A stretch of 64,000 nucleotides of DNA from a virus (taxonomy: Duplodnaviria > Caudoviricetes), in IMG/VR virus record IMGVR_UViG_2816332137_000001, positions 3,602 to 67,601 of that record, one strand, 5' to 3'. Numbering within the stretch: position 1 is the stretch's first letter; every line of letters begins with the position of its first letter. This document shows, piece after piece, positions 3,398 to 62,169 of this stretch. A model generated the notes under the pieces. That model was not told the origin of the DNA. It saw only the letters and a program-made list of their open reading frames with translations, and made no database searches. A program made the position numbers and the translations under genes.

Positions 3398-4108
3398 ATG
3401 ACTAAAGAGCTTATAAATTTCAAAGAATATTTTAATGAACATATTCTAAAAATTGACACAGAAAATGAAATAATTAAATCATTTTTTTGCGCACGAAAAA
3501 ACAATTCTGCCTACTGGTTTAGGGTTATTTTTGCTCCATATCACATAACAATTTATGGAGATATCGGTAATTTAGCTTTTCATGTTTCCGACTATGACTC
3601 ATTAAAATGGTTATTATCTACCGATAAAAAGCATATTCAATATTTGATGAGTAAAGTTCCTTCTGAATTTAAATCAGCAGTGTTTGAGTTTTCGCATGAA
3701 AAAGCATTGTCTTTTCTTGATGAGCAAGAAAATGATTTAAAAAAATCTATACAAGACAAAAAAGAATCAGACGAGGATATGGATTTTTATGATGATAATT
3801 CTTTTTTTGTAAAGGAAAATATAGTCATAAAAGAATGTGAAGACAAAATTAATAAAATACTATCTCTAAAAGATGATTTACCAGATATTAGCGAAGAAGA
3901 ATTTTATCAAAGACTTGTTGTTGATTTAGATGAAAGTGATTTAGAAACTTCTAGTTTTAAAGACTATACAAGCCATTGTTATTTTATTGCTGCCGCTTTA
4001 TTTAAGTTTTGCAAATTATATAAAGAATATAAAGAAATAAATTTAGACCATGATAAAAATATTTATATGAATACTCAAGTAATAGTCAACTCTAATAACA
4101 ATTATTGA
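3398..4108 (+). CDS. Conserved phage hypothetical protein
   Basis: F..H.L...YWF....P..I.I.GD.G pattern typical of a phage early-gene family. Confidence 0.6.
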   Translation: MTKELINFKEYFNEHILKIDTENEIIKSFFCARKNNSAYWFRVIFAPYHITIYGDIGNLAFHVSDYDSLKWLLSTDKKHIQYLMSKVPSEFKSAVFEFSHEKALSFLDEQENDLKKSIQDKKESDEDMDFYDDNSFFVKENIVIKECEDKINKILSLKDDLPDISEEEFYQRLVVDLDESDLETSSFKDYTSHCYFIAAALFKFCKLYKEYKEINLDHDKNIYMNTQVIVNSNNNY

Positions 4109-8933: not shown

Positions 8934-9257
8934 TTATTTAATCCCCAAAGTCTTCATTATAATCTGAGCAACAACCTTACTTTTAGTTAGTCCCGTTTGT
9001 TCAACTAAATTTTCAAGAGCTTCATTAACATCAGGTCTTAAATGAGTCATTACAGGTTCTAGGCGTGCTTTTTTTTGTTTCTTTTTTAGTTCTCTTAGTT
9101 CGTCAACAAAAGAATTTACGCTAGCAGAATTATTTTTTGGCTCTTCTGTTACGGTAGCGGAAGCTCCTACTATTTGGGGTTGTGGCTCATCTGTTGGTGT
9201 TGCTTTAATTTTAAGTGATTCTTGTAACCTTTTATTTGTTGATGGCGCGATGCTCAT
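8934..9257 (-). CDS. Putative ParA partner / centromere-binding protein (RHH-like C-terminus)
   Basis: Directly downstream of parA; flexible N-terminus then strand-helix-helix (MTHLRPDVNEALENLVEQTGLTKSKVV). Confidence 0.6.
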   Translation of the reverse strand: MSIAPSTNKRLQESLKIKATPTDEPQPQIVGASATVTEEPKNNSASVNSFVDELRELKKKQKKARLEPVMTHLRPDVNEALENLVEQTGLTKSKVVAQIIMKTLGIK

Positions 9258-9258
9258 T

Positions 9259-10053
9259 TTAGACTCCTTCTACTATATTGGACAACTCTTTATATGCTAC
9301 CGCAACGTTAGAATCAGGAGCGAATAAACCTACGGGAGTTTTTTGGCGCTGACTTTCAATTACTTTTACAGAGTCCGGAACTTTCACGGTTAGAAATTTT
9401 TCTTTGTACTCTTCTTCTAATTCATCGAGTAGAGCGCGTACAGCATTGGACCCGCCCTTTTGAAATGAAGTAACAAACACGCCTAGAAGTTGTAAATCGG
9501 GATTGTTACCACTTTCTTTTATCATCTGAGCAACTTCATGAATCGTGCGCATCCCTTTTTGTGAGTACACGCTTAAATCTGTAGGAACCAAATAATAATC
9601 AGCCGCAACAAGAGCATTAATAGTTAGAACATTCATTAATGGAGATAAATCAATTAAAATATAATCAAAATTATCTTTTATTTTTGCAAGTATACTTTTT
9701 AAAATATGTTCTTTATTCAGTCGGCTGTGCAAGTGATCACTGATAGTTGCGAGTCTACAATCAGAAGGAAGTACAAGCGTATTTTGCCATGCTTCAATGG
9801 CTGGTTTAATTATTTCATCCAATTGAACCTTATTTTTAACATCTAAAAAAGCATCAAAAATAGTTTTAGTTTCCTCGTCTGTTACTTCACTCATACTCTT
9901 ACCTAAAAGCATTTTGCTTGCATTTTCCTGTGAGTCTAAATCAACAACGAGCACGCTTTTACCAGAATTTCCAAGTTGGTACGCGAGTTCAATTATAGTT
10001 GTAGTCTTTCCTACACCGCCCTTTTCGTTCACGATTGCAATTGTTCTTGTCAT
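9259..10053 (-). CDS. parA: ParA/Soj family partition ATPase
   Basis: Deviant Walker A NEKGGVGKTT, VVDLDSQ, ILIDLSP Walker B. Confidence 0.95.
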   Translation of the reverse strand: MTRTIAIVNEKGGVGKTTTIIELAYQLGNSGKSVLVVDLDSQENASKMLLGKSMSEVTDEETKTIFDAFLDVKNKVQLDEIIKPAIEAWQNTLVLPSDCRLATISDHLHSRLNKEHILKSILAKIKDNFDYILIDLSPLMNVLTINALVAADYYLVPTDLSVYSQKGMRTIHEVAQMIKESGNNPDLQLLGVFVTSFQKGGSNAVRALLDELEEEYKEKFLTVKVPDSVKVIESQRQKTPVGLFAPDSNVAVAYKELSNIVEGV

Positions 10054-10206
10054 GGTGTTTTACCTCCATAATTATATTACTCTCATAAAATATTTTGTTA
10101 ACTTAGTTTGATTAAATTTTTGGCAGTGAGATTTTTAGAATTGTAGAACGTTCGTTTTTATGAATGTTCGTGCGTACGAATTTGTGAAACACTTTTATAT
10201 TTGTTT

Positions 10207-11616
10207 TTACAAAAGAGCTTTTAATCTCTCTAATCCGTCATTACTTAATTGTATTACTGCTAAAGCGGTGCAATCAAACTGATCATCATATTTAGCTTTT
10301 GGAAATTTACTCATTTCACTCACATATTCAGGAACCCAAGGGAACAATTTAGGGTTCGGTAAATAAATATTTCCAGCTTGTTGCAAAGGTTGAACAACTA
10401 AACCTCTGTTGAATTTTTCGGTTTTAGGATTGAATGGAATTAAGCCTGAAATTTTATTTTTTAGCATTGAAATAACAGCACTACCATTTGCTTTATCTTC
10501 TATATATTTAGCATGTGCTAACGGATATTTATTTGATAATAATTTTACTTGTTCTATTTGTTGTGGGAAGTCCCAATGACCACGAACTTGATCCAATAAA
10601 TAAAGGTTAACACCTTTTTTGCCCCAAACTTGCCCGACTGTAAAATCATTATCCTCTGAGCCTTTGAAAGAAAAATCCCAAGTTTGAATAATGCGGTCGT
10701 AAAAAGTAAATGGTTGATCGTAGTAACGCCAATCTTCTCTTTTAAACAAAGTACCACTAGCAGGCAATGGGTCCTGTTGATATTGAGCGTTCCAATTATA
10801 ATCGCCAATTGTCTCTTTAATGTCCTGAAGCGCTTCTAAGTCATAAAGCTCAGGAAATAAAGCCTCTCCTCTTTTTCTGTTTATTTCGTTTTCTGTTGCT
10901 ATAGCTGGATAGCAAACAACTTGCCATTTATGAGGTTCTGTTCTTAATAAATAACCGCTCAAATCATCTTCATGCCAACGGGTTTGGATTATTAAAATTC
11001 CAGCACCTTTGTAGCGTCTAGTATAAACTGTGGATTTGTACCAGTTAATTACTTTATTACGCATTGTATCGGAGAGGGCTTCTTGTCCATTTTTATGAGG
11101 GTCATCAATAGAGATAATATGACCGCCTTTTCCAGTAATTCCAGAATCCACACTACCAGCAATGAATGAACCGCCGTAAGTTGTTTTCCATTTTTGCAAT
11201 GACTTACAATCTTTTTTTAAATCAAATTTTGGAAATATTTCTTTGATCCAATCTTCTTTGATTAAGTCCCTGCATTTTCCTGAAAATTCTTCTGAAAGTG
11301 TTTGACCATATGAAGTAGAAATATATTCGCCTTTAGGATACTTACCCAAAAACCATGCAGGAAATCTTTCACTAAAATGAAATGATTTTCCATGTCGTGG
11401 TGGCATGAACATCATTAATCGAGGGGATTTTTTATCAATAACATCTTGAGCAAATTTCTCTAATCTTCTGCATATATCAACATGTACCCAACCAGGAATA
11501 TAATCTGAAAAACTTTTTTGACAGAAGTTTAAAAAATCATCCTGTTCATTTTTACGTTTCTTTATTTGATTGAGTAATTCAAGAATTTTAATTTTTTCTT
11601 GAATACTACTTGTCAT
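10207..11616 (-). CDS. terL: Terminase large subunit
   Basis: Walker A MPPRHGKS, Walker B IISIDD, QTRWHEDD, YQQDP, RNase H-like nuclease with TWD..FK and DDQFD. Confidence 0.95.
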   Translation of the reverse strand: MTSSIQEKIKILELLNQIKKRKNEQDDFLNFCQKSFSDYIPGWVHVDICRRLEKFAQDVIDKKSPRLMMFMPPRHGKSFHFSERFPAWFLGKYPKGEYISTSYGQTLSEEFSGKCRDLIKEDWIKEIFPKFDLKKDCKSLQKWKTTYGGSFIAGSVDSGITGKGGHIISIDDPHKNGQEALSDTMRNKVINWYKSTVYTRRYKGAGILIIQTRWHEDDLSGYLLRTEPHKWQVVCYPAIATENEINRKRGEALFPELYDLEALQDIKETIGDYNWNAQYQQDPLPASGTLFKREDWRYYDQPFTFYDRIIQTWDFSFKGSEDNDFTVGQVWGKKGVNLYLLDQVRGHWDFPQQIEQVKLLSNKYPLAHAKYIEDKANGSAVISMLKNKISGLIPFNPKTEKFNRGLVVQPLQQAGNIYLPNPKLFPWVPEYVSEMSKFPKAKYDDQFDCTALAVIQLSNDGLERLKALL

Positions 11617-12097
11617 TTTTCTCTGCTTTTTGGTGTTCTTTTAAAAGTTTTTCATAATATATATCTAACTCTTCCCTTGTCATTTCTTCTATTGCTTTTG
11701 TATTATTTTGATTATTAGAATTGAATATGTTTATCTGAGAAGAATCACCATAATCATCACGAAACCTTTTACTCATTTGATATTGTATTTGATTACCATT
11801 TCCTTTTGCTGTTACAGCATTATTTAAGGCCAATGTTTCCCAAAATGCTTGGCATGCAGTTTGTGCTATTTCAAACGACTCTTTAAAGTTTTGAATTTCA
11901 TTAATCCAGTTATAAACAGTTTGTTTACTCACTCCGATTTTTGAAGCAAAAAAAGAAAGGCTTTGCCCTTTCTTCATTGAGTCAATTATTTCGTTGTGAT
12001 ATTTATCTTGGAATAATTTTTTTCGGCCTGCGCCCTTAGGATTTTTAATTTGTTTAGATTTATTTGAATTTTTGACAGACGGTATAATTTTCTTCAT
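11606..12097 (-). CDS. terS: Terminase small subunit
   Basis: GAGRK N-terminus, HTH (GVSKQTVYNW); overlaps the terL start. Confidence 0.85.
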   Translation of the reverse strand: MKKIIPSVKNSNKSKQIKNPKGAGRKKLFQDKYHNEIIDSMKKGQSLSFFASKIGVSKQTVYNWINEIQNFKESFEIAQTACQAFWETLALNNAVTAKGNGNQIQYQMSKRFRDDYGDSSQINIFNSNNQNNTKAIEEMTREELDIYYEKLLKEHQKAEKNDK

Positions 12098-40648: not shown

Positions 40649-41020
40649 ATGTCAGAATCAAAAGAAGATATTGCTGCTGCTGTTAGAGAATTCTTTGTTG
40701 CAATCAAGTCATCTCCAAATGCGATGATTTTATTATTGGTATTTGTTTGTGTTGGATCTTCTTCGTTGGTTACATATTTTGGCTTTCAATTGACAGGACA
40801 GAATAATAAATATTATTCAGAATCATTAACAAATCAACTTCAAGTTGCAAATCAACAAGTAAAGCAATTTAACGAGAATATTTCAGTAACAAATATTGCT
40901 TTGTCTCAATTAAAAGAGCAATTCTCTGATTTTAAACTAATGCAAAGCGAAATACAGAATTCAATTAAAGATCATGAAAAAAGGCTTATTAAAATTGAAG
41001 TAAAAGAAGGTATTAGATGA
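40649..41020 (+). CDS. Holin candidate (one TM plus coiled coil)
   Basis: Directly upstream of and overlapping the endolysin. Confidence 0.5.
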   Translation: MSESKEDIAAAVREFFVAIKSSPNAMILLLVFVCVGSSSLVTYFGFQLTGQNNKYYSESLTNQLQVANQQVKQFNENISVTNIALSQLKEQFSDFKLMQSEIQNSIKDHEKRLIKIEVKEGIR

Positions 41021-41439
41021 AATTATCCAATAACTTTTCTCTCGAAGAATTTGAACATTCCTACGTTGCGATTGCAAGAGGAATAAATAATAAAGCACCA
41101 GAAGAAGTTATTAATAATTTAAAAAAATTATGTGAAAATGCTCTTGAACCATTGAGGCAGTATTTAAATAAACCAATTAAAATATTGTCTGGATATAGAT
41201 GTGAGGAATTAAACAATGCGGTAAATGGGGTTAAAAACTCACAACACTTGTTGGGTTGTGCAGCAGATATAACAGTTGAAAATATTCCTCATCCAGAATT
41301 ATTTGAAATAATAAAAAATCATTTTGAATTTGATCAATTAATTCTCGAATACGTAAAACCAAATAATTCTTTTAGCGGCTGGGTTCATGTTAGCTGGAAT
41401 GAAAATAAAAATAGAAATAAATATTTTAAACTAGGGTGA
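41017..41439 (+). CDS. Endolysin, peptidase M15 family
   Basis: SGYRC..LN.AV.G..NSQH..G.AADI...WVHVS Zn-binding motifs. Confidence 0.92.
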   Translation: MKLSNNFSLEEFEHSYVAIARGINNKAPEEVINNLKKLCENALEPLRQYLNKPIKILSGYRCEELNNAVNGVKNSQHLLGCAADITVENIPHPELFEIIKNHFEFDQLILEYVKPNNSFSGWVHVSWNENKNRNKYFKLG

Positions 41440-41445
41440 TTAATA

Positions 41446-42126
41446 ATGGATACTTTTAATGATTTTATGAAAAAAACTTTTGAAAATTTAGAATGTGATT
41501 CTTATTTAGAAGATTTATTTAGTAACATAGAATTATTTACAAATGATTTTATTGAAAGGAAATCACCTAGATTAATTGTAAACATGCCACCAAGAAGCTT
41601 AAAAAGTGAATCAATATCAATAAGACTTCCGGCATATTTACATTCAAAAAATCCAAAATTAAATATTGGCGTATTTGTTGCGAATCAAGATCTTGCAAAT
41701 CATTTTTCATGCAAGAATAGTTGTATTTATAATAAACCAAATAATATAAAATATATAGGAATAAGTAATGAAAGCATAGATGATTTAAAATTTGATATTA
41801 TTATAATAGATGACACTATAAGAAGTTCTAAAGAATCAGAATCTTTAAAATTTAAATTCAAGACACATACTTTTATAAAAAAACTTTTAGAGAAACATTT
41901 AAATCCTTATGGTGGTTTTATAAATGTTCAATCTCGCTGGTGTAAAGACGATACAACTGGATTTTTGATAGATGTATGTAATAATCATGATTGGAAAGTT
42001 TTAAAATATCCCGCGTTAAATAGTAATGACGAACCTTTAACAAATCTATTCAAATACAAAAAAATAAAGAAAAATATTAACTATAAATATTTTCAAGCCT
42101 TATATCAGCAAGATCCTATTTTATGA
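41446..42126 (+). CDS. Stand-alone terminase large-subunit ATPase-domain paralog (no nuclease domain)
   Basis: KSPRL...MPPR..KS, IIIDD, Q.RW..DD..G.L, W.V..YPA, ends YQQDPIL; colinear with the TerL N-domain. Confidence 0.85.
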   Translation: MDTFNDFMKKTFENLECDSYLEDLFSNIELFTNDFIERKSPRLIVNMPPRSLKSESISIRLPAYLHSKNPKLNIGVFVANQDLANHFSCKNSCIYNKPNNIKYIGISNESIDDLKFDIIIIDDTIRSSKESESLKFKFKTHTFIKKLLEKHLNPYGGFINVQSRWCKDDTTGFLIDVCNNHDWKVLKYPALNSNDEPLTNLFKYKKIKKNINYKYFQALYQQDPIL

Positions 42127-42701
42127 TTTTAAGGTATAAAAAAATGACTTTAAAATATAAAATAATAATCTGCTTTGTTACTTTAATTGCTGTTTTTTTT
42201 GCTGGCCGTTTATCTCGACCAGAGGCTCAACCTACGGTGGTAAAAACTCAAAAAGAAGAAAAGCAATCGGTAAATTTAGTTGATACAAAACAAGAGGAAA
42301 AAAAATCAAAAACAATAAAGCATAAAAACAAAATCAAATTGTCAGAAAAAAAACCTGATGGTTCTGAAAAAACGCTGGAAATTGTATCAAATGATACAAA
42401 TGAAATTACAAGCGACCAAATTTTAAATTTATCAACTTTAAATAGTGAGACTAGGACCACCGAAAAAATCGAGCTTAAAACGCCTAAAAACAATTTAGCG
42501 ATAGAAACTCAACTAGCAATTGAAAATAAATTTAAAAGCTTTTCGGAGTTACCAAACACATTTAAATTTTCGCCTAATGTTTCGGCAAAACTTGATTACA
42601 GGCTAACAGGCGACTTGTGGGCTTTTGCAAGAATTAAACACGAAATTTTTAACAACAATAACTCTTGCGAGATCGGGATCTCGCACAGACTCGAATTTTA
42701 A
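42123..42701 (+). CDS. N-terminally anchored membrane protein (spanin/Rz-like position)
   Basis: One N-terminal TM; last gene of the lysis cassette. Confidence 0.5.
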   Translation: MILRYKKMTLKYKIIICFVTLIAVFFAGRLSRPEAQPTVVKTQKEEKQSVNLVDTKQEEKKSKTIKHKNKIKLSEKKPDGSEKTLEIVSNDTNEITSDQILNLSTLNSETRTTEKIELKTPKNNLAIETQLAIENKFKSFSELPNTFKFSPNVSAKLDYRLTGDLWAFARIKHEIFNNNNSCEIGISHRLEF

Positions 42702-42717
42702 TAAGGAAATAATTATT

Positions 42718-43323
42718 ATGAAACAAATTTTAAATTATCAAGTGCAAGAAGTAAATCAAGATCAATATTGGGACACCTACTATAAAGAGTTTATGCAGGA
42801 TTTTCCAGAAGAGCTAACCTTTATTCGTGAAGGACTTCTAACAAAAGAGCAAATGGATAAAAGAAAAAACCTATTAAAAATGACTTCAAATATCTCACAT
42901 CATTTTATTTTAAAAGATGGTGATAAAGCTATTGCATTATTTCGTGGAGAACAAAAAGATATAGATGTTTATTATTTACGCCACGGAGTTGTAAAAAATG
43001 AGTACAGAAAGCAAGGGATTTTGTCCGAATGTTTAAACAAGGCAATTGAGTTTTGTAAAGAATTAGGATTTGTCCAAATTACATGCTGTTTTGTTCTTTC
43101 AAATAATAACATTCTATCGCAAATGATCAAAAAAGATTTTTATTTAACTTCAATTGAGTGTCACGCTGAGTATGGTCAAATTGGGTGGCTTAGTCATTAC
43201 CTAAATGAAGATTTAAAAAGGGCTTTCTTTTTCCGTTGTGGAATGGTTGAATTTTCAAAAAAGCTTTTAGATAATTCTGAGGGAAATGTTAAAAAATTTA
43301 ATAAAATATTAAATGGATTTTAA
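42718..43323 (+). CDS. GNAT-family acetyltransferase
   Basis: Acetyl-CoA motif V..EYRKQGI; N..I...IK..F; start at MKQILNY after AAGGA. Confidence 0.75.
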   Translation: MKQILNYQVQEVNQDQYWDTYYKEFMQDFPEELTFIREGLLTKEQMDKRKNLLKMTSNISHHFILKDGDKAIALFRGEQKDIDVYYLRHGVVKNEYRKQGILSECLNKAIEFCKELGFVQITCCFVLSNNNILSQMIKKDFYLTSIECHAEYGQIGWLSHYLNEDLKRAFFFRCGMVEFSKKLLDNSEGNVKKFNKILNGF

Positions 43324-51858: not shown

Positions 51859-52512
51859 ATGTTAAACGAATCGCTAGAAAGATTAAAATTTCTCAGGGAA
51901 GAAATATTAAATTTAAGCCTCAAAGATTTTTGCAGCAAATTCTCACTATCTTATAGCTATATGAGAAATATAGAGTGTGGAGAAAAAGTATTACCAAAGA
52001 GTAAGTCACTAGAAATAACTAAAAAAATTCAAAATTATGGATTTAATATTTCAGATGAATGGATCGAAACGGGCTACGGTTCTTGCCCCATAAGCTCTTT
52101 TTCAATTCTAAAAACTAATAAGTATATTAATTTTGACGATACAAATACAGAACAAAGGCATTGGTTAAAAACCATTTTAACAAGAATATTTCCATACAAA
52201 TATGCATGTATTTCAACAAATGAAATGATGCCATTTTTAAAAAATGGAGACATTGTTTTTGGAGTTAATGGAGACCCTTCAAAGAATTTAGAACGATTGA
52301 ATAATGAAATTGTAATTGCGCGGGTTGAAGATAATTTCACTTATGTAAGAAGACTTCGAATTGTTGAAAATAATGTTTTTTTAGTAGCAGATAATCTTGA
52401 TAAAACAGATGATCCTGTTGTTAAAGTAAATAAAATTAATTGGATATCACCTATAATAATTCATAAAAAGCATGTTGGAAAAATCGAAATATTGGAGAAT
52501 CAAAATGATTAA
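51859..52512 (+). CDS. XRE HTH plus S24-like C-domain repressor (CI-like); catalytic dyad degenerate
   Basis: N-terminal HTH, WI..G.G hinge, NEMMP...GD.V and YVRRL in place of SM.P and KRL. Confidence 0.8.
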   Translation: MLNESLERLKFLREEILNLSLKDFCSKFSLSYSYMRNIECGEKVLPKSKSLEITKKIQNYGFNISDEWIETGYGSCPISSFSILKTNKYINFDDTNTEQRHWLKTILTRIFPYKYACISTNEMMPFLKNGDIVFGVNGDPSKNLERLNNEIVIARVEDNFTYVRRLRIVENNVFLVADNLDKTDDPVVKVNKINWISPIIIHKKHVGKIEILENQND

Positions 52513-53527
52513 AATTAGATATATATATATGGGTGCATTTATCGAAGCATTTGACTTTTGTGTTTATTTAGTGTTTTCTCATGAGCTTTCAAAATTTCTA
52601 CTTGGAAAAGAAAATTTATTTTTATCAATATTGATTTTTTCAATTTCATATATTGCAAGGCCATTTGGTTCTCTTTTTTTTGGAATTTTTGCTAAAAATC
52701 AAAAGAATGGAATCACAACATTTTTAAGAAATTCACCTCTCTGGATTGCAATTCCAACATTTATAATTGCATTTTGTCCAAGAAATGACTTTGGAATATA
52801 TTTACTTTTAATTTGCCGCTTTATGCAAGGATTTATTTTTGGAGGAGAGAGCGGTTTAAGTTTTGTTTTTGCATATTTAAACGTGACTAAATACAAAAAT
52901 ACTGCGATTGCAGCGTTTCTAACAAGTGGTGCCGTTGCTATGGCTGCCTGCTTTATTTTAATTCCTCTAATTCCTTCATTATTTAATTTAGAATCTTGGA
53001 GATTAGCATTTATTATATCAGGAATTTTGAGTTTATTATTTGTTATTATTAGATCCAAGATTCCAAAAGTAAGTAACGAAAAATTTGAAACAAGTTCAAA
53101 AAATGTGAGCGCATTTAAAGCAATTTCATATATAATTATTTATGCTGCTATGTTCAATACAGTCCTAGCCTTTTTAACATCAGGTCAAAAATATATTAGC
53201 TTACCTCTAGCTATGTTAAGCATTTCTTTTTTATCAATTATATTTGGATATATATTTGATAAAATAAATATTCTAAGATTTTTAAAATTAATAAATGCTT
53301 TGGCTATTTTTCTATTGCTTATTTTAATGTACTTTAATTTAAATTTGTTAGCTTTTTTTACAGCATTTATAATGTGCTGTGCGCTAGGCGGCATTTCGAT
53401 TTCTTCAGCTATAAAATATTTGTCAAATAGTAAAAGTTTATATCCAAAATTCGGATTAGTTTATAACACAGTCATGGGAAGCATGGGGGCGTTAGTCCCA
53501 ATAATCAGGGAGGTATTTAAATCATGA
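52505..53527 (+). CDS. MFS transporter (MHS/ProP-like)
   Basis: E.FDF..Y, Y.ARP.G...FG, R..QG...GGE..; start overlaps the repressor stop. Confidence 0.85.
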   Translation: MIKIRYIYMGAFIEAFDFCVYLVFSHELSKFLLGKENLFLSILIFSISYIARPFGSLFFGIFAKNQKNGITTFLRNSPLWIAIPTFIIAFCPRNDFGIYLLLICRFMQGFIFGGESGLSFVFAYLNVTKYKNTAIAAFLTSGAVAMAACFILIPLIPSLFNLESWRLAFIISGILSLLFVIIRSKIPKVSNEKFETSSKNVSAFKAISYIIIYAAMFNTVLAFLTSGQKYISLPLAMLSISFLSIIFGYIFDKINILRFLKLINALAIFLLLILMYFNLNLLAFFTAFIMCCALGGISISSAIKYLSNSKSLYPKFGLVYNTVMGSMGALVPIIREVFKS

Positions 53528-60712: not shown

Positions 60713-61546
60713 ATGAAACCAAGTGAAGATTTTAAAAAATTTAATAAAATAAATGCACTTTATAAAGCAAAAATGACTATCACTCAAAAGTTACACGGGA
60801 CAAACGCTTTAATTTATATCTATTTTGATGGGATGACAGGAAATTTAGATTTAATTTGTGGATCTAGAACTCGCTGGATAACTCCTCAAGATGATAATTA
60901 TGGATTTGCTAAATTTATTCATGAAAATAAAGAAGAATTTATAGATAAATTAGGGGAAGGATATCATTACGGTGAATGGGTAGGATTTGGGATAAATTCA
61001 GGAGAAGGTTTAGATAATCGAAATCTAATTTTATTTGATTGGCAAAAATTTCATAATAAGCCTCTTCCAGAGAGAACAAATACTATTCCAGTTTTATATC
61101 ATGGAGAAATAAACTTTAATATAATTAATGAAAAAATGGAATATTTAAAAAATAATGGTTCAGAATTAGTTAAAGGTTTTATGAATGTTGAGGGAATCGT
61201 TATTGATATTAACGGAGTAAAGTATAAAAAAGTTTTTAACCCAGAGGAAACAAAATGGATTTCATCAAAGTCTGATAAGAAAATGAAACAAGACAATTTA
61301 GTTTTTGATTACTTATTACAGCATAACAGATTAGAAAATTTGCTATCTAAAGATGAACGATATTTAAAAGAATTTCCAAAATCTATAGGTTTAATAATTA
61401 ATGATTACACCTCTGATTTGCTAAGTGAAGAACAAATTGATGAAAATATCTACAATCAGAACTTAAAAAAAATAAAAAGAGAAGTTGGGTATTTTGTAGT
61501 GGATTTAATAAAAAGTAAATTATTAAAACAAAGCAAAGCAAGCTAA
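60713..61546 (+). CDS. RNA ligase, Rnl2 family
   Basis: Nucleotidyltransferase motifs I KLHGTN, Ia GSR, III YGEW, IIIa LFD, IV EGIV, V KKVF. Confidence 0.88.
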   Translation: MKPSEDFKKFNKINALYKAKMTITQKLHGTNALIYIYFDGMTGNLDLICGSRTRWITPQDDNYGFAKFIHENKEEFIDKLGEGYHYGEWVGFGINSGEGLDNRNLILFDWQKFHNKPLPERTNTIPVLYHGEINFNIINEKMEYLKNNGSELVKGFMNVEGIVIDINGVKYKKVFNPEETKWISSKSDKKMKQDNLVFDYLLQHNRLENLLSKDERYLKEFPKSIGLIINDYTSDLLSEEQIDENIYNQNLKKIKREVGYFVVDLIKSKLLKQSKAS

Positions 61547-61573: not shown

Positions 61574-61846
61574 ATGATTTTTATTATTGATACAGACAAA
61601 GAAAAGATGTTTAAAAAATATAAAGAATTAACATATCACTCTAAGAATTGTCCTGCATGTAAAAAAGAATTATGGGAAAATGGTACATTTGAATTCTTTG
61701 TCTCAAAAGAACATCGCGGATTTATTAGAACATGTAATGCTTGCATGAAAAGTCAGACCTTATTAACTCCAAAAAAATTAATTGATCAAATAAAACTCAG
61801 AAATACAATAAATAATTTAAAAAATAGATTAGGACTAACAAAATGA
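61574..61846 (+). CDS. Zn-ribbon protein
   Basis: CPAC...CNAC. Confidence 0.65.
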   Translation: MIFIIDTDKEKMFKKYKELTYHSKNCPACKKELWENGTFEFFVSKEHRGFIRTCNACMKSQTLLTPKKLIDQIKLRNTINNLKNRLGLTK

Positions 61847-62169
61847 ATGAAAAAGAATTTAGTGCAGAATATATTAGAGAACTCAGAGCCTCAGAGCTTC
61901 AAAAAGAAAAAGAAGAATTTGATATTAAATATGATAAATTAATTAATAAAATAAAAAATTTAATATTAAAAAATTCTTCAGAAGATAAAAAATATCTTCT
62001 AATCACAAATGATGATTGTTCTGAATTTAATAAGATTATTAAAAATAAAAATGGAGGCGAAAATCTTGTTAATTATTTTAATTCATTGGGGTTTAAAACG
62101 GAATTTACACATACAAGAGAAAGACGCATTAATGGTAAAGAAATAGCTGAACTTAAAATTAAATGGTAA
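61843..62169 (+). CDS. Hypothetical protein
   Basis: ATGA-coupled. Confidence 0.6.
   Translation: MNEKEFSAEYIRELRASELQKEKEEFDIKYDKLINKIKNLILKNSSEDKKYLLITNDDCSEFNKIIKNKNGGENLVNYFNSLGFKTEFTHTRERRINGKEIAELKIKW

Follow-up and report, generated by a model that had tools for sequence, protein, structure and literature searches.

A mobile, nuclease-less paralogue of the terminase ATPase domain encoded by phages of Silvanigrella

The mini-TerL gene and its product

The gene described here is located at positions 41446 to 42126 of a 64,000-nucleotide stretch of viral DNA (Duplodnaviria; Caudoviricetes; IMG/VR record IMGVR_UViG_2816332137_000001, positions 3,602 to 67,601), in the following referred to as the window. 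It encodes a stand-alone paralogue of the ATPase domain that forms part of the large terminase subunit (TerL), which we name mini-TerL. An earlier, sequence-only reading of this locus had described an intact open reading frame of 226 residues, colinear with the N-terminal domain of the complete TerL encoded on the same element. BLASTP bears this out, as mini-TerL aligns colinearly with residues 25 to 284 of the resident TerL at 28% identity (E value 1e-24). The motif pairs pointed out in that reading, namely KSPRL, MPPRSLKS/MPPRHGKS, IIIDD/ISIDD, QSRWCKDD/QTRWHEDD, YPA and YQQDP, are all present. The PHROG TerL profiles 4758 (E value 8e-22) and 38 (E value 4e-20) match mini-TerL; it reaches no family threshold in Pfam or NCBIfam, and the PADLOC defence and anti-defence profiles match none of three mini-TerLs or their neighbours. 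Routine annotation would hence label the protein hypothetical, and its recognition is owed to the PHROG profiles and to its fold. The gene shows the following features:

41446 to 42126, plus strand: mini-TerL open reading frame, 226 residues, ATG start codon, no nuclease domain
41584 to 41607, plus strand: Walker A motif (P-loop), M47-PPRSLKS-54, with R50 and K53 invariant across the mini-TerL family
41791 to 41814, plus strand: Walker B motif, F116-DIIIIDD-123, with D122 and D123 invariant in 57 of 57 aligned mini-TerLs and TerLs and the basic K115 preceding it
41932 to 41952, plus strand: coupling (C) motif, S163-R164-W165 through D169
42103 to 42117, plus strand: hinge, Y220-QQDP-224, which in full-length TerLs leads into the nuclease domain and is here followed by the stop codon two residues on

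The end of the frame at the YQQDP boundary, two residues past the hinge, is as had been noted before, and the internal deletion noticed on that occasion is real. It comprises about 25 residues between the helix following Walker A and the strand preceding Walker B; in addition, compared to TerLs, about 24 N-terminal residues are gone, as is an 8-residue segment of the lid which corresponds to the conserved R..GEAL.PER motif. The tight fit of the gene between its neighbours is likewise correct. Six nucleotides separate the stop codon of the upstream M15 endolysin gene from the mini-TerL start codon, while the mini-TerL stop codon overlaps the ATG of the downstream gene by four nucleotides (ATGA). 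A Shine-Dalgarno-like AGGGTGA is found six nucleotides 5' of the mini-TerL ATG. A scan for promoters and terminators around the gene gave results no better than chance.

The AlphaFold2 model of mini-TerL, calculated from an alignment of 57 sequences, shows a mean predicted local distance difference test score (pLDDT) of 95.6 and a predicted template modelling score of 0.92. It supersedes an earlier model based on an alignment of five sequences (pLDDT 68.6). The best matches among solved structures, without exception TerL ATPase domains, extend over residues 1 to 226 and score as follows:

PhiV-1 TerL (8dgc_E): 21.1, root mean square deviation of 1.9 Å over 212 residues
HK97 TerL: 17.6
P74-26 ATPase domain: 17.4
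T4 gp17: 15.4
TerLs of D6E, T7 and Sf6: 14 to 15

Searching the PDB by sequence gave no match to either the mini-TerL alignment or the resident TerL; only the deeper family profile reaches the TerLs of PhiV-1 (E value 9e-15) and T7 (E value 9e-12) by sequence. On account of these structural and profile matches mini-TerL is predicted to be a complete and compact TerL ATPase domain, lid included. Out of 90 alignment columns which are conserved in at least 60% of full-length TerLs, 36 are kept in at least six of the eight mini-TerLs. Among the columns lost are the TGxG loop preceding Walker B, whose G113 is conserved in 98% of TerLs, and R151 (98%). A basic residue just before Walker B persists, either as K115 or as an arginine one or two positions earlier. 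Judged from the alignment, the mini-TerLs appear to retain the nucleotide-binding residues, yet not several elements which are nearly universal in full-length TerLs.

Measured against a functional TerL, mini-TerL possesses the ATPase domain of the additional-strand, catalytic glutamate (ASCE) class with Walker A, Walker B and coupling motif. It lacks the C-terminal RNaseH-like nuclease domain (Terminase_6C), stays below the Pfam and NCBIfam thresholds and, in six genomic contexts, never adjoins the gene of the small terminase subunit (TerS) or the portal gene. Docking on the portal has been attributed, for other TerLs, to the C-terminal end. With the nuclease domain, the N-terminal 24 or so residues, the segment of about 25 residues, GEALxPER, TGxG and R151 all lost, mini-TerL is not expected to be a packaging enzyme on its own.

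Conservation, selection and ancestry

Homologues were sought among 5.8 and 1.8 billion proteins as well as in genomes of the same genus, two of which are designated G008 and G009; contigs, loci and proteins carry labels beginning with C, L and P, respectively. The family thus assembled consists of proteins of 211 to 235 residues with 32 to 96% identity to the protein of the window. All members are intact and free of frameshifts:

P0001 and G009:C69: 226 residues, 95 to 96% identity to the window's protein
P0002 (17 contigs): 230 residues, 64 to 67%
P0003: 221 residues, 61 to 63%
G009:C316 and P0006: 230 to 231 residues, 44 to 49%
G008:C8 and P0007: 218 residues, 39 to 42%
P0010: 235 residues, 32%

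The known range of the family, which forms about five clusters at 50% identity, is confined to Silvanigrella phages and freshwater metagenomes. A scan of JGI metagenomes with the family alignment revealed no mini-TerL relative. The matches in IMG/VR are exclusively full-length TerLs with at most 30% identity, INPHARED phages yielded three weak TerL matches only, and in the ESM Atlas solely viral hypothetical and TerL-like clusters were matched.

The N-terminal, internal and C-terminal boundaries are common to all family members, each of which keeps Walker A, Walker B and the S/T-R-W motif. Across five members with 39 to 67% identity, M47, P48, P49, R50, L52 and K53 of Walker A, F116, D117, I119, I120, D122 and D123 of Walker B and, beyond these motifs, R164, D169, Q222 and P224 are invariant. 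In the alignment of 57 sequences, which includes full-length TerLs, P49, K53, D122 and D123 remain invariant and R50, R164, W165, D169 and P224 nearly so. The genes of the window and of G009:C69 differ by 14 synonymous and 10 non-synonymous codons, where 19% synonymous differences would be expected (p 2.6e-5). The ratio of non-synonymous to synonymous substitution rates (dN/dS) amounts to 0.14 for this pair and to 0.24 to 0.37 at 63 to 67% identity, all of these values referring to pairs with unsaturated dS. For the adjoining endolysin gene of the same genome pair a ratio of 0.18 is obtained, mini-TerL thus being similar to its neighbouring genes. Mini-TerL is under purifying selection. The sequence-only reading had held the domain to be retained and precisely trimmed instead of decaying, and had named conservation and dN/dS in relatives as one check; homologues that are intact and equally long down to 39% identity, dN/dS values well below 1 and invariant catalytic motifs agree with this view.

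Truncated TerL fragments are common, and short proteins corresponding to the N-terminal part of TerL and ending at the same hinge exist elsewhere, some of them encoded directly after TerS (P0020, P0012). One might consequently take mini-TerL for the remnant of a terminase gene or for one half of a split TerL. We regard this as very improbable in view of eight intact members with identical truncation boundaries, dN/dS below 1 and invariant active-site residues, the gene being in none of six contexts next to TerS. A decaying remnant was rejected because the homologues contain neither frameshifts nor internal stop codons and because of the dN/dS values and the p value given above. A split TerL was rejected as well, as the genome holds no matching orphan gene for a nuclease domain: searching its 3.94 Mb with the full-length TerL retrieved TerL and mini-TerL only, and the gene downstream of mini-TerL displays no nuclease similarity.

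A maximum-likelihood tree built from the ATPase region of 62 sequences unites the eight mini-TerLs in one clade (Shimodaira-Hasegawa-like approximate likelihood ratio test, SH-aLRT, 100), with which four full-length TerLs group (SH-aLRT 99), namely G009:C223, G009:C30, P0008 and P0035; at least two of these stem from contigs of other Silvanigrella phages. A distant clade contains the resident TerL and its G008 orthologue. The grouping is supported by two signatures common to mini-TerLs and sister TerLs, PPRHLKSE..IRLP, which has leucine where Walker A usually has glycine, and ANQDL.N.FS, and the mini-TerLs are 33 to 38% identical to the sister TerLs compared to 27 to 28% to the resident TerL. 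Since the latter also originates from an AT-rich Silvanigrella element, base composition alone does not account for the grouping. According to this tree, mini-TerL has a single origin, which lies in the TerL lineage found in other Silvanigrella phages and not in the resident TerL.

Genomic contexts and horizontal exchange

The window is part of a 67.6-kb contig (C30) of a 3.94-Mb genome with 29% G+C, and the element is a contractile-tailed phage-plasmid of Silvanigrella. It encodes ParA together with a ParB-like protein (8934 to 10053), TerS and TerL on the minus strand, and, as structural and assembly proteins, a Mu-like portal, a head-morphogenesis protein, a protease, the major capsid protein, sheath, tape measure and baseplate J. 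The partition genes directly adjoin TerL and TerS on the minus strand (8934 to 12097), and this terminase operon is set apart from, and inverted relative to, the portal gene (16364). The lysis region follows the tail genes and comprises, in this order, a gene for a 123-residue transmembrane and coiled-coil protein, the M15 endolysin gene, mini-TerL and the genes of a 192-residue membrane protein and of a GNAT acetyltransferase. The features relevant to the following comparison are:

40649 to 41020, plus strand: 123-residue protein with N-terminal transmembrane segment and coiled coil, holin- or i-spanin-like, first gene of a block nearly identical to G009:C69
41017 to 41439, plus strand: endolysin (Peptidase_M15_3, PHROG 894)
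42123 to 42701, plus strand: 192-residue protein with N-terminal transmembrane segment and C-terminus ...GISHRLEF, encoded after the endolysin in all related cassettes, whether or not mini-TerL is present
42715 to 43323, plus strand: GNAT acetyltransferase, usually the last gene of the cassette
10207 to 11616, minus strand: resident full-length TerL (Pfam Terminase_6N and Terminase_6C), belonging to another TerL clade than mini-TerL
11606 to 12097, minus strand: resident TerS
61819 to 61846, plus strand: junction of the open reading frames 61574 to 61846 and 61843 to 62169, an empty site at which G008:C8 carries mini-TerL and two small genes

The last residue of the 192-residue protein is aromatic, as in signals of outer-membrane beta-barrels. 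This protein is 33 to 90% identical across related cassettes, matches no family and could be a single-chain, spanin-like protein for envelope disruption. As unusual cargo, the phage-plasmid carries genes for a transporter of the major facilitator superfamily (Pfam MFS_1, E value 3e-10) and for a protein with an RNA ligase domain (52472 to 53527 and 60713 to 61546).

At L001 to L006 and in G009:C316 mini-TerL is situated between the M15 endolysin gene and a gene for a 185-residue protein. At L007 a Phage_lysozyme takes the place of the M15 endolysin beside mini-TerL, showing that the endolysin type is not tied to it. The cassettes of G008:C8 and G009:C30 contain the transmembrane/coiled-coil gene, the endolysin gene and a gene for 185 to 190 residues, and are devoid of mini-TerL. 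G008:C8 is syntenic with the window. In this contig mini-TerL and two small genes sit in the early/replication region, between homologues of the window's open reading frames 61574 to 61846 and 61843 to 62169. The inserted genes (L019, 7421 to 9068) encode mini-TerL and proteins of 159 and 79 residues, and the two genes on either side of them abut in the window. Two paralogous Zn-ribbon genes (89 and 79 residues) flank the insertion, which suggests that recombination between repeats lies behind it.

Comparison of the block 40649 to 42126 with L021 (G009:C69, 5954 to 7431) reveals identities of 100% for the 123-residue protein, 90% for the endolysin and 96% for mini-TerL, with dS ranging from 0.03 to 0.30. 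The flanks are far less similar, the upstream tail and baseplate genes being 46 to 66% and the downstream gene of the 192-residue protein 37% identical. By these identities the block is a recently exchanged cassette. The reverse pattern is observed in G009:C316, where the 185-residue protein is 90% and mini-TerL 46 to 49% identical; the GNAT of this contig looks closely similar in the translated reading frames. In the phage encoding P0002 (L002, 4932 to 7246) a Mu-type transposase (rve and Mu-transpos_C_2) and an IstB/MuB-like ATPase are encoded right after GNAT, which places members of the family in transposable phages as well. Mini-TerL is a mobile accessory gene which has moved horizontally between phage-plasmids and Mu-like transposable phages of the genus Silvanigrella and into different operons, and we consider it very likely that it represents a functional, mobile TerL-ATPase paralogue.

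The sequence-only reading had regarded mini-TerL as a constituent of the lysis cassette and hence as expressed late. This is not sustained by the cassettes of G008:C8 and G009:C30, which do without it, nor by the position of the G008 copy in the early/replication region. On the same grounds mini-TerL was rejected as an obligatory lysis protein; its modelled soluble alpha/beta ATPase fold is not that of a lysis component either.

Possible functions and comparison with known systems

While the TerLs of the window and of G008:C8 are 92% identical, their mini-TerLs share only 40% identity. As mini-TerL and the resident terminase thus do not co-evolve, the dominant-negative action on the phage's own terminase that had been envisaged in the sequence-only reading fits poorly. 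The same observation bears on the idea that mini-TerL modulates the packaging of its own phage as a non-cutting ATPase subunit which joins or regulates the resident terminase, for instance in headful cutting or initiation. Both in the window and in G008 a complete TerL shares the replicon with mini-TerL, and in the window mini-TerL would, given its operon, be expressed along with the late genes. Yet in addition to the missing co-evolution it descends from another TerL clade, the cassettes of close relatives lack it, and its position and probable timing vary, which renders such a modulator unlikely.

We tentatively favour, with a probability of roughly 0.3, that in conflicts between phages mini-TerL, with ATP bound, mimics terminase in trans and interferes with the packaging of rivals. 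The proteins vs.8 and Ksap2, described below, are precedents in part. The putative residues for nucleotide binding and hydrolysis are retained, namely R50 and K53 of Walker A, D122 and D123 of Walker B, the S/T-R-W motif and D169. Mini-TerL would titrate or poison packaging components (TerS, the TerL ring, DNA ends) of co-resident or superinfecting phages whose TerL is of the type ancestral to mini-TerL, while the unrelated resident terminase would be left alone. This proposal is drawn from the descent of mini-TerL from the type of TerL that co-resident rivals carry, from its independence of the resident terminase, and from G009, a single metagenome-assembled genome with at least four related phage elements; the presence of several such elements makes competition at the level of packaging realistic. 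Several points weigh against this assumption. The identity to the sister TerLs reaches only 33 to 38% and the stem branch of the mini-TerL clade is long in the tree, so that it is not apparent that the terminases of rivals living today are mimicked. The copy of the window lies in a late operon, from which no expression is to be expected in a quiescent prophage. A poison subunit does not obviously need invariant catalytic residues, and the TerS-binding site may have been lost together with the N-terminal extension.

Alternatively, mini-TerL may be a neofunctionalised ATPase whose target lies outside packaging, be it a host factor or a component of replication, recombination or transposition, and whose P-loop core serves as a nucleotide-dependent switch. 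We assign to this reading the same low probability as to the preceding one. In the mini-TerLs 54 of the 90 TerL-conserved columns are changed, G113 and R151 included, and the long stem branch as well as the early/replication position of the G008 copy point in this direction too. At L001 to L007 and in G009:C316 the mini-TerL genes belong to one co-directional string with exonuclease, recombinase and SSB genes, and vs.8 of phage T4, a stand-alone protein resembling the TerL ATPase domain, is likewise encoded among non-essential early genes. On the other hand, no partner gene is conserved beside mini-TerL across its contexts, the overall fold is predicted to be still that of a complete TerL ATPase domain with its lid, and no family or defence profile hints at another activity.

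No enzyme of tailed phages is more conserved than terminase, which is also one of the chief targets of pattern-recognition immunity in bacteria. Mini-TerL might, as the sequence-only reading had proposed, be an immune decoy which binds TerL-sensing receptors (Avs1-3, Upx-like) without triggering them and thereby shields the genuine TerL. This is quite unlikely in the light of published experiments on at least two types of sensor, in which isolated TerL ATPase domains strongly activate EcAvs2 and are sufficient to activate Upx (PMC13601566). Moreover, the stand-alone proteins of this kind described so far are activators, T4 vs.8 having been reported to activate EcAvs2 (Evans et al. 2026, PMC13601566) and Ksap2 (Bas60_220), a small protein with a weakly TerL-ATPase-like structure, to trigger KpAvs2 (Bechon et al. 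2024, PMC11564622). No anti-defence profile matches mini-TerL. Among seven large P-loop open reading frames of the host that were scanned with PADLOC, none matches an Avs profile, a limited check which is no proof of absence; the scan identified a type I restriction enzyme and a Mokosh MkoC-like protein, besides a weak match to mad3. The former two are encoded on the host chromosome at G000:C4:146827-150207 and G000:C18:361510-365889 (PADLOC REase_I, E value 2e-186; MkoC-like, E value 7e-179).

Carried further, the assumption of interference with rival packaging would make the mini-TerLs an inter-phage weapon, an ATP-loaded mimic of a rival's terminase ATPase which is traded horizontally among the temperate phages of one host and sabotages the packaging of competitors upon co-induction or superinfection. 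This wider picture is speculative and more doubtful still. If true, nuclease-less TerL ATPase paralogues would, together with T4 vs.8 and Ksap2, have evolved repeatedly for one common purpose, which immune sensors such as Avs2 now detect.

Among known proteins, the TerL ATPase domain of the T7/PhiV-1-like branch of Terminase_6N (PDB 8DGC chain E, 4BIJ) is close to mini-TerL. In contrast to TerL, mini-TerL has no RNaseH-like nuclease domain and no N-terminal extension, about 33 internal residues are deleted, and the TGxG loop and R151 are lost; furthermore, it is encoded away from TerS and the portal gene, as a second copy beside a complete TerL. Split TerLs (the N-terminal halves in PHROG 4758; P0020 and P0012 downstream of TerS) resemble mini-TerL in being ATPase-only and in ending at the same hinge, but differ in their canonical terminase position and their place in the tree. 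Five such ATPase-only, TerL-like proteins of 235 to 284 residues with a YQQxP-type hinge end, P0012, P0020 (L119, L120), P0056, P0081 and P0039, belong to unrelated TerL lineages. P0020 follows a TerS gene and P0012 probably does so, too; these two hence look like split or nuclease-less primary terminases, not accessory copies.

Ppi of Staphylococcus aureus pathogenicity islands and Rpp of phage-inducible chromosomal islands interfere with packaging by binding TerS and are unrelated to TerL. The logic proposed for mini-TerL would be the same as theirs, that of a small trans-acting protein which redirects or blocks a rival's terminase.

A literature search for truncated or second terminase paralogues returned nothing relevant; stand-alone phage proteins resembling the TerL ATPase domain had been noted twice, as vs.8 and as Ksap2. 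Like mini-TerL, vs.8 (NP_049732, 219 residues; L143, 10254 to 10913) is a stand-alone protein of about 220 residues with TerL-ATPase fold and both Walker motifs, A and B, and its gene lies away from those of the terminase. It is trimmed differently; its Walker A (GGRQSGKS) is located near residue 95 and its Walker B (LYIIDE) near residue 175. Homology between the two is not detectable (hhalign probability 0.65%), vs.8 going back to a T4 gp17-like and mini-TerL to a T7-like TerL, and the same architecture has thus been invented independently. Ksap2 has in common with mini-TerL that it is a small accessory phage protein of narrow taxonomic range with a TerL-ATPase-like fold. Compared to these two, mini-TerL is of independent origin and its homology to TerL is far clearer; what is new is the evidence for selection and mobility. 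It descends clearly from TerL, its compact fold is modelled with confidence, its active-site residues are intact, and it evolves under purifying selection and moves independently. This makes it the clearest case in nature to date of a phage which has retained the ATPase half of a terminase alone, as an accessory gene, and for biochemistry it represents a TerL ATPase that is naturally minimal. Taken with T4 vs.8 and Ksap2, mini-TerL points to a recurrent, as yet unexplained class of phage proteins.
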